Of a DNA stretch of 64,000 nt, positions 22,101 through 25,100 are shown piece by piece. The DNA is taken from assembly GCF_003991155.1 (NCBI RefSeq), contig NZ_CP031293.1, one strand, 5' to 3'. Made by a program: the position numbers. This stretch comes from Escherichia coli. Its GTDB lineage: Bacteria; Pseudomonadota; Gammaproteobacteria; Enterobacterales; Enterobacteriaceae. Positions within the stretch are counted from its first letter, which is position 1. Each line of letters starts with the position of its first letter.

Positions 22101-25100
22101 ATAACTTGCTCCTTAGCCGTTATCGTTTCGAACATGTCATCCTTTTCATTATTTACATCCTTGTCCGAATCGTTGTTCAATATAGTAAACGCCTATAAGA
22201 ACTTTGCCCTTCGTGAACTAATACGTCTATTAACACTAATCAATACTTCAGATTTATCCATCACGCACTCCATATATTGATCCTAAGTAAGATTCCTGGT
22301 TGTTATCAGTTTGTAACCAGTAAACAAAAGGTTAACTTTTGCGGATTACTGCCCAAGAATAAGTTATCAATAACCAGTTTGTGATCTCTGAAGAATATTA
22401 CTAAAGTTAAAATGTAATCCGATTTAAATATCGAGTCTCCTTGTTTCGACTTAGGCTGGCAATTGGATTGCCAGCTTTCTTTTAACGCATTGAAATTACC
22501 TGATTAAATAACTCATTCATGTCTTCAGGTTTTTATATAGCGTCTGGAGACACGGATATTTATGCAATGTAATCAACGCCAGTTGCAAAAAAATGAACCC
22601 GGATTACTTATTTAACCGCCTATAGCATCAACGCTTACGGAACTCTTTGTTCACTTTCCCACAGCACTTTTAAAACATTAAACCTGACCACGGAAAATAT
22701 CAGCCATGATAATGTTTGAAATGGCTAATTTGCCATGGAATGAAAAAATCAGATTAAATTCAGTAGGTTGAAATAATCAACAGCAGGCAATTGTTTCAAT
22801 GATAGTGCGTAATTGAACTGAAACACTGTATAGCTAAGAGAGTATTAACTGGATCATAGTCACTTAATGTGACTATGATCCAAGTGGAAATAGGGATAAT
22901 TATTGCTTTTTAACGAACAAACTGGCGAAGCTGAACAGACTGGCGGCGCTAAATATCAGTTCAATTCCCACCAGTGTGGAAACCAGCGTTACCGACACCA
23001 TCGGCGTAGCACCAAGGAATATCCAGGCAATGACGATATCCAGCACACCAATAACGAGCTGTAGCCAACTGCCTTTCATTGAACGCTGACGATACCAACT
23101 CATCAGGCGAATAACCCCTGCCACACAGAACAAACCGGCAATAAATGCCGCAATGGCAAAAATGCCCAGCTCTGGTGCGCGGATGAAGAAATAGCCGATC
23201 AATAAATAGGCGACTGCGACGAGGAAACCGGATAATACCGGCCAGAAATTATGACTGCGGTTGCTGAATAACCCGACAATAAGCGCAATACCCGAGCAGA
23301 TTAATAATGCACCCACTACTGTGCTTAAAATATCGCCAGAGACGAACGGAAAACTGATACACAGCAACCCGACGATAAACAGCAGCACGGCAATAAACTG
23401 GATTGCTCTGCGATGTTTTTTAAGCATCTCCAGATCAAACTTCAAAATTGTTGCCTTATCTATATATAACATAGAACCACCCTATAAAATTAAGAAGAAA
23501 ATCCCCTGCTATCAATCTATGCCAAAAACGCGTGTAAGAATGCAGTCGATTTAATAAAAATTTCCTAATTACAGTATCTGATGCATCTGTAACTCATTGT
23601 ATTGAAATAAAAATATCTGATTTTGATATTTTCCATCAACATGACATATACAGAAAACCAGGTTATAACCTCAGTGTCGAAATTGATTCGTGACGGCTCT
23701 TTCACTTTATAGTTGAGGATATTACGATGAAAAAAGTATTAGGCGTTATTCTTGGTGGTCTGCTTCTTCTGCCAGTAGTGAGCAATGCAGCGGATGCACA
23801 AAAAGCAGCTGATAACAAAAAACCGGTCAACTCCTGGACCTGTGAAGATTTCCTGGCTGTGGACGAATCCTTCCAGCCAACTGCAGTTGGTTTTGCTGAA
23901 GCACTGAACAACAAAGATAAACCAGAAGATGCGGTTTTAGATGTTCAGGGTATTGCAACCGTAACCCCAGCTATCGTTCAGGCTTGTACTCAGGATAAAA
24001 AAGCCAGCTTTAAAGATAAAGTTAAAGGCGAATGGGACAAAATTAAGAAAGATATGTAATTCCGGGAATGCGTTACATCGTATTTCCTTGCATATTGAAC
24101 AGGCCGGAATATCTTCTTTAAAAGCAGCTATTCCTCCTGTTTGTATATAATCTCTATATTGAATGGGTTACAAAATGAACATTTCATCTCTCCGTAAAGC
24201 GTTTATTTTTATGGGCGCTGTAGCGGCTTTGTCACTGGTGAACGCACAATCTGCGCTGGCAGCCAATGAATCCGCTAAAGATATGACCTGCCAGGAATTT
24301 ATTGATCTGAATCCAAAGGCAATGACACCAGTTGCGTGGTGGATGCTGCATGAAGAAACAGTATATAAAGGTGGCGATACCGTTACTTTAAATGAAACCG
24401 ATCTCACTCAAATTCCTAAAGTGATCGAATACTGCAAGAAAAACCCGCAGAAAAATTTGTATACCTTCAAAAATCAAGCATCTAATGACTTGCCGAATTA
24501 ATAAGGTACAAGTAAAAAGGAGTAGCAAGTTGAGCCATCTTGCTGCTCCTTTTTGCATTTTTATATGACAGCAGAATTTATTATACGACTTATACTTGCG
24601 GTAATTGCCTGTGGCGCTATTGGCATGGAAAGGCAAATGCGCGGCAAAGGAGCAGGGTTACGCACACATGTATTAATTGGCATGGGAAGCGCCCTGTTTA
24701 TGATTGTTTCGAAATATGGTTTTGCTGACGTGCTGTCTTTAGGTCACGTCGGACTGGACCCCAGCCGTATTGCTGCTCAGGTGGTGACGGGCGTCGGGTT
24801 TATCGGTGCAGGTAACATTCTCGTTCGTAACCAAAATATTGTAGGTCTGACGACGGCAGCGGATATCTGGGTGACCGCCGCCATTGGTATGGTTATTGGC
24901 AGCGGTATGTACGAACTGGGTATTTATGGTTCAGTGATGACCTTGCTGGTGCTGGAAGTCTTCCATCAATTAACCTTCCGCCTGATGAACAAAAATTACC
25001 ATTTACAGCTGACATTAGTGAACGGTAATACGGTATCAATGCTCGACTGGTTTAAGCAGCAAAAAATAAAAACGGATTTAGTTTCGTTGCAGGAAAATGA

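Follow-up and report, generated by a model that had tools for sequence, protein, structure and literature searches.

Is the long non-coding stretch in front of gadE in this Escherichia coli strain the same control region that is known from K-12, and how would it drive gadE-mdtEF in a strain where gadX is disrupted? GadE controls glutamate-dependent acid resistance as well as the MdtEF efflux pump, and the region that controls it is therefore relevant to how commensal and pathogenic E. coli survive in the stomach. We addressed the question in a 64,000 nt stretch of contig NZ_CP031293.1 (the window, to which all coordinates refer), where a sequence-only reading had pointed to an unusually long, AT-rich spacer of about 800 bp upstream of gadE. 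Our answer, held with a probability of roughly 95%, is that this segment corresponds by orthology to the control region of gadE (gadE-mdtEF) in K-12, and that it most likely works in the same way.

The ORF map, the annotations of K-12 and strain 2016C-3878 and the alignment with K-12 place the hdeD-gadE spacer at 22103..22899 on the minus strand. It measures 797 bp from the hdeD stop codon to the gadE ATG and has a GC content of 0.351, against 0.486 in the whole window, which gives exact limits to the spacer proposed earlier; the description as unusually long also holds, in that no larger intergenic gap is found in the annotated neighbourhood (22-25 kb). According to the ORF map the minus strand carries mdtF (16941-20054), mdtE (20079-21236), gadE (21575-22102; 175 aa, identical to K-12) and hdeD (22900-23472), and on the plus strand hdeA begins at 23727. 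The spacer had been called divergent, which is incorrect: hdeD and gadE lie in tandem on one strand, here as in the K-12 and 2016C-3878 annotations, and the divergent pair is hdeA/hdeD. This was the sole error we found, and the interpretation in the sequence-only reading is otherwise supported. It should be noted that a GC content of 0.32-0.44 spans about 21450 to 24600 and so takes in gadE and hdeD/hdeA/hdeB. Because low GC covers these genes as well, we ascribe the AT-richness to the core of the acid fitness island; it is not specific to the spacer.

By megablast, 5413 of the 5426 complete E. coli genomes contain the spacer, and at least 80% of the query is covered in 5406 of them. It occupies a median of one place per genome in this set, always on the chromosome and never on a plasmid. 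A mobile or repeated element was rejected on account of this single, never plasmid-borne place and of internal direct repeats that are short two-copy matches. The spacer is 100% identical to that of strain 2016C-3878, and it aligns to K-12 with 100% coverage and 95-97% identity (797 versus 798 bp). The gadE control region has been reported as 96-99% identical among pathogenic E. coli and Shigella (PMC3708157). Collinearity with K-12 is broken by a single 1-bp indel at about 22749 (about -647), and since this lies upstream of the T3 start site, any position -n relative to gadE can be converted to window coordinate 22102 + n. Altogether 42 substitutions or indels separate the strain from K-12, 29 of them in the 163 bp nearest hdeD, and the other 13 spare the ArrS promoter, the TTAGGAT core of the GAD box along with the Shine-Dalgarno (SD) site. 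The surroundings of T3 and T1 are unchanged out to 20 nt, the nearest difference being at -21 relative to T3, and at -104 and -31 it is K-12 that is the odd one out against all other compared sequences. The K-12 alignment suggested earlier as a check thus returned high conservation with collinear published start sites. Poor conservation with K-12 or a conserved coding ORF had been named as findings that would speak against the reading; conservation is high, and no ORF in the spacer has a coding signature, as described below.

For comparison across species, GadE was used to scan one genome from each species; this gave six loci in Escherichia, from E. albertii, E. whittamii and four further lineages, each with hdeD upstream in tandem and a spacer of 720-794 bp. 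Adding five more diverse E. coli alleles resulted in 13 sequences.

In K-12 the 798-bp region has 5' ends at -21, -124, -324/-317 and -566 and responds to more than 10 regulators, including ArcA/H-NS (PMC3708157), which agrees with the multi-promoter, multi-regulator region described in the sequence-only reading. We predicted the start sites of this strain by alignment with the published K-12 positions. On the minus strand, gap-free collinearity puts T3 (-566) at 22668, the T2 5' ends (-324/-317) convert to 22426/22419, T1 (-124) falls at 22226 and the -21 end at 22123 (all PMC3708157). The last of these is in the literature a probable processing product (PMC3708157). A sigma-70 consensus scan of the spacer found 5 promoter-like sites against 4.1 in shuffled sequence; this lack of enrichment is what activator- and sigma-S-dependent promoters would lead one to expect.

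The conservation profile outlines a P3 core block (-640..-560; 22662..22742, minus strand) which holds the T3 start and the sites upstream of it. Motif scans detected here a candidate activator palindrome, AGCCAT-N13-ATGGCT (22702-22726, minus strand), and overlapping it a YdeO-box-like ATTTCA-N14-TGATAT (22697-22722, minus strand). The pair sits 29-58 bp upstream of T3, and the stretch -622..-598 is 100% invariant in the cross-species profile. As the YdeO box is described as an ATTTCA inverted repeat and a YdeO ChIP peak is reported at gadEp2p3 (PMC4222967), we suggest YdeO as the putative regulator acting at these candidate sites.

Closer to the gene, a pattern search located the GAD-box core TTAGGAT at 22280..22286 (minus strand), 54-60 bp upstream of T1 and conserved in all compared species, which makes it a candidate site for GadE autoregulation. 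A full 20-mer GAD box in the spacer was rejected, the sole occurrence of the 20-mer being upstream of gadA (12013-12032), and the spacer has just the core. For K-12 a "conserved GAD box in the P1 region" has been described (PMC3708157). The Shine-Dalgarno sequence of gadE, AAGGAG (22109..22114, minus strand), stands 6 nt before the ATG at 22102 and is invariant in all compared species. The leader contains several GGA motifs, one of them inside the SD, and CsrA binds the gadE leader with a KD of 138 nM (PMC11210196). A structured T1 leader or sequestration of the SD was rejected, as the fold of the T1 leader is no better than that of shuffled sequence (z -0.85).

The cis-antisense sRNA known from K-12 had also been mentioned, and here it is identified as ArrS. 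The 70-nt gene, annotated in K-12 as arrS (b4704), aligns to 22414..22483 on the plus strand with 69 of 70 bases identical, and the T3 leader of gadE is complementary to its product at -381..-312. The RNA folds with -19.9 kcal/mol (z -3.4), and both the terminator scan and the fold place a Rho-independent terminator at 22453..22483 (plus strand; 11-bp stem, 3-nt loop, then TCTTTT). The only difference from K-12, at 22454, is an A>G change in the RNA that turns an A-U pair of the terminator stem into G·U and keeps the pairing; the same change is present in E. albertii and in locus L003. An Rfam scan of 10-30 kb of the window (E<=1) gave no match in the spacer, which speaks neither for nor against ArrS because ArrS has no Rfam model. 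ArrS has been found to act both in cis and in trans (PMC6755755, PMC5145812, PMC6212723), and its interaction with gadE is RNase III-dependent (PMC6212723); its expression at low pH is reported to depend on sigma-S and GadE, and its binding of Hfq and Hfq-dependent action in trans are likewise taken from the literature (PMC6755755, PMC5145812). The T2 ends fall within the stretch complementary to ArrS, which fits the published RNase III cis action of the sRNA (PMC6212723, PMC5145812, PMC6755755).

At the other end of the spacer, inverted repeat search and folding revealed a perfect hairpin with a 14-bp stem and a 5-nt loop at 22850..22882 (minus strand), beginning 17 nt past the hdeD stop codon (dG -24 kcal/mol, z -6.3). 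Across 9 distinct Escherichia sequences 93.7% of the cells are paired, and three pairs show compensatory changes (E. coli has GGATC/GATCC, the others GCCTC/GAGGC). Loop and flanks vary freely among species. The covariation score exceeded that of all 500 shuffles and of every slid control, the compensatory changes probably going back to one or two events in evolution. A U-tract 3' of the stem, which here is followed by GTTAATACTCTC, is missing in every species, and the terminator scan did not flag the hairpin as an intrinsic terminator. We infer that it is probably a stem-loop at the 3' end of the hdeD mRNA, serving as processing stop or stabiliser upstream of P3. That the repeat should instead serve a dimeric regulator as DNA operator, or be a canonical intrinsic terminator, is in our view unlikely. 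The symmetry of a palindrome survives the same paired changes as an RNA stem does, and the sense-strand mismatch in L006-L008 is A·C, which is not in favour of a sense-strand RNA. However, the sense strand of L005 has G·U and U·G pairs, arms of 13-14 bp around a freely varying 5-nt loop are what one expects of a hairpin in RNA or DNA and unlike known operators, and without a U-tract the definition of an intrinsic terminator fails in every species.

The spacer had further been judged to hold no convincing ORF, and this judgement stands. Nine ORFs of at least 20 aa are found on the two strands; in eight of them, stops or frameshifts interrupt the frame in other Escherichia species (13 sequences), and the Pfam and NCBIfam search of the spacer ORFs gave nothing above cut-off. 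A conserved coding ORF was rejected, eight being broken outside E. coli and the ninth having a dN/dS of about 1. Likewise an in-frame TTG extension of gadE (22180) was rejected, as a 1-nt indel puts it out of frame in four species, so the annotated gadE ATG stands.

From the ninth ORF one could argue that the spacer hides a small protein gene or a leader peptide of 22-26 codons modulating gadE via the T2/T3 transcripts, which we regard as very unlikely. It lies at 22193..22273 on the minus strand (MECVMDKSEVLISVNRRISSRRAKFL) and comprises 26 codons from the first ATG, or 22 codons (22193-22261) from an internal ATG preceded by GGAG. It overlaps P1/T1, is whole only in the T2 and T3 transcripts, and ends 90 nt before the gadE ATG. 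In its favour, it is the sole ORF of at least 20 aa that is open in all 13 Escherichia sequences, the GGAG stands at a suitable distance from the internal ATG in E. coli, and the acid-resistance cascade offers a precedent in evgL, the leader peptide of evgA (PMC11210196). Yet its 13 nonsynonymous and 3 synonymous changes give a dN/dS of about 1.1, and as few changes create stops (12 of 234 possible single changes, 5%), chance would be expected to keep it open. The invariant centre falls on P1/T1, and the invariance runs on past the stop codon of the ORF. Moreover the GGAG, present in E. coli, L003, L004, L006 and L008, is absent in L005 and E. albertii (L007). The ORF has no Pfam or NCBIfam match and no annotation in K-12 RefSeq, and the peptide is absent from the portions examined of the supplementary tables on acid-stress Ribo-seq. 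A coding role is hence not supported by the comparison of these sequences; the ORF may be a regulatory element whose effect is independent of the peptide sequence.

The 22193-22261 frame has many codons whose decoding falls to MnmE/MnmG-modified tRNAs, and it is also rich in rare codons for Arg (AAA GAA TTG AGA CGA AGG AAG TTA). Were it translated on the P2/P3 transcripts, it might act as a cis-acting leader in which decoding efficiency tunes gadE, and this would offer a route for the still-unexplained dependence of gadE on MnmE (TrmE). We consider this highly improbable. The link is weakened by the fact that the MnmE effects were seen with promoter-lacZ truncation fusions, one study assigning them mainly to the P2 region and another to P3 (PMC3708157); the ORF lies in neither region.

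Where constraint acts on the spacer was assessed from the share of invariant alignment columns in the 8 taxa with both flanking genes complete. As benchmarks, fourfold-degenerate sites are invariant at 0.19 in hdeD and 0.41 in gadE, and codon positions 1-2 of the flanking genes at 0.91-0.98. The hdeD-proximal part (-797..-641) reaches 0.26 and the P3 block (-640..-560) 0.79. The middle of the T3 leader (-559..-386; 22488..22661, minus strand) drops to 0.06, and four non-coli lineages, E. albertii and E. whittamii among them, lack 60-75 bp of it; the stretch -455..-395 (about 60 bp) is specific to E. coli. It is followed by ArrS (-381..-312) at 0.90, the ArrS promoter and P2 (-311..-250) at 0.66, the stretch -249..-200 at 0.40, and finally the proximal part with GAD box, P1, leader and SD (-199..-1) at 0.85. 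Judged from this alignment, the spacer alternates between three modules under strong constraint, conserved on a par with codon positions 1-2 (P3 core; ArrS and its promoter; GAD box, P1 and leader), and neutral-looking DNA that separates them. It is barely credible that most of the spacer is AT-rich filler without function, or the decayed remains of horizontally acquired DNA, in which only a short proximal promoter matters: about 380 of the 797 bp do behave neutrally or worse (-797..-641, -559..-386 and -249..-200, with 26%, 6% and 40% invariant columns), the middle is partly deleted in other species and the entire island is AT-rich, but the distal blocks match codon positions 1-2 in conservation (79% for the P3 block, 560-640 bp upstream, and 90% for ArrS), published truncations found the P3 region to be required for full activity (PMC3708157), and the length of the spacer is steady at 720-798 bp in six Escherichia lineages.

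Turning back to the orthologous control region as our preferred reading, we draw on the K-12 literature for the activity of the promoters, the binding of regulators and the working of ArrS in this strain, which the following scheme presents as a model. The spacer would be H-NS-silenced, AT-rich DNA with several promoters, P3 at -566, P2 at about -320 and P1 at -124, which would be switched on by different regulators: EvgA/YdeO, GadE, GadX/GadW, RpoS, ArcA and others. The transcript from P3 would have a 566-nt leader, and the 70-nt ArrS made from the opposite strand would pair with -381..-312 of this leader, leading to RNase III-dependent processing to a shorter form. Upstream of P3, the hairpin after hdeD would probably mark or protect the 3' end of the hdeD mRNA.

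The strain background bears on one of these inputs. The reported gadX disruption is confirmed as an IS1 insertion at about 13984-14750, which splits gadX after nt 103 and is accompanied by a 9-bp target duplication. The junction is common to at most 52 of the 5426 complete genomes, and more than 12 strains are 100% identical over the 5 kb from gadA to gadW; gadX::IS1 marks a lineage and did not arise in assembly. Both gadW (15850-16578) and GadY (15493-15606, minus strand, from the Rfam scan) are intact. Activation of gadE in stationary phase is reported to be GadX- or GadW-dependent (PMC3708157), and as gadW is intact, we expect the GadX/GadW input to gadE to be weakened and not abolished. 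The quantitative behaviour of the region may differ from that in K-12, given the 42 differences, including the one near T3, along with the inactivated gadX.

The control region is thus already known, an intact and ordinary allele of a region that has been studied experimentally for twenty years. What we add is modest: the cross-species constraint footprint, the covarying hairpin after hdeD and the lineage-fixed gadX::IS1 context. The closest known system is K-12 PgadE itself, reportedly described as a "750/798-bp sensory integration region" in work by Ma et al. 2004, Sayed & Foster 2009 and Deng et al. 2013. The two share locus, flanking genes and near-equal length (797 versus 798 bp), all published 5' ends are collinear, and the GAD-box core, the ATTTCA motifs, the SD and ArrS are kept in the present strain. 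They differ by the 42 changes, mostly in the hdeD-proximal 163 bp, and by gadX::IS1. ArrS resembles K-12 b4704 in its place antisense to the T3 leader, its terminator and 69 of 70 bases, and differs by the one A>G that puts G·U for A-U in the terminator stem. The short ORF is like evgL in lying in the leader of an acid-resistance regulator (PMC11210196). Unlike it, the ORF ends well before gadE, whereas the evgL stop overlaps the evgA start, and evgL-evgA is translationally coupled and CsrA-controlled (PMC11210196), while the ORF here shows neither coding nor translation signal. Finally, GadY in the gadX-gadW region of the same island is likewise a cis-antisense sRNA within a long AT-rich intergenic region; GadY, for which an Rfam model exists, overlaps the 3' UTR of gadX, whereas ArrS lacks such a model and lies across a 5' leader.

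In the present window gadX (13881-15481) is split after nt 103 by an IS1 element at about 13984-14750, and the insertion is flanked by a 9-bp target-site duplication. The identical gadX/IS1 junction recurs in other genomes (at most 52 of the 5426 complete E. coli genomes, among them 2016C-3878, CREC-544 and MRY15-117), hence gadX::IS1 is a lineage-fixed allele. Both gadW and GadY, which lie downstream of the interrupted gadX, are intact.

Loss of the hdeD-gadE spacer (22103-22899) itself was also seen. No match whatever to the spacer was found in 13 of the 5426 genomes. A natural deletion is present in strain 3059 (locus L016, NZ_CP103559, 4833-6232), running from inside gadA through gadX, gadW, mdtFE, gadE and the 566 bp of the spacer nearest to gadE, with a Tn3-family transposase remnant in place of the lost DNA; just the hdeD-proximal ~213 bp of the spacer is kept.

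Within the gadE T3 leader, a segment of ~60 bp (22497-22557, about -455 to -395) is shared by E. coli and the two lineages closest to it (loci L003 and L004), and is missing from E. albertii, E. whittamii and the Escherichia loci L005 and L008, where the adjoining stretches carry deletions of differing extent. The leader also holds a second copy of the sequence of the ArrS 5' end, GTAATCCG, ~180 nt upstream (22409-22421 and 22600-22612). As judged from base complementarity (13 nt, 85%), an intramolecular duplex could form between the upstream copy and the ArrS target site in the leader. Conservation of this copy does not extend beyond E. coli, and its occurrence may be due to chance.

At the 3' end of gadE, the Rfam match "ES205 sRNA" (106.5 bits, 21386-21457, minus strand) represents the 3' portion of GadF, an sRNA derived from the gadE 3'UTR (b4718 in the K-12 annotation; 21386-21476 in the window). 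A 115-aa ORF on the plus strand (21278-21625) overlaps the gadE 3' end antisense to GadF. In the 2016C-3878 annotation a portion of this ORF (about 21296-21625) is listed as "hypothetical protein" WP_001205317.1. This ORF looks like a spurious call.

The hdeD-spacer-gadE sequence of the E. coli acid fitness island was also encountered in two assemblies labelled as unrelated genera, "Flavobacterium paronense" (L009, NZ_JAUFQN010000010) and "Streptomyces sp. DH24" (L010), which is almost certainly contamination. The former shows scattered 1-nt indels, as typical for uncorrected long reads, and these bring its apparent GadE identity down to 73%.

Divergence from K-12 starts in the spacer and extends into the final hdeD codons (22900-22908). 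The HdeD C-terminus is variable, ending in ...KKQ in the window strain and ...KQQ in K-12; in the non-coli species HdeD is one codon shorter and ends in ...KK. Further along, the acid fitness island is split by a chu/shu heme-uptake cluster between yhiD and dctR (~25264-34216, coordinates from the L002 annotation), while in K-12 yhiD directly adjoins dctR.
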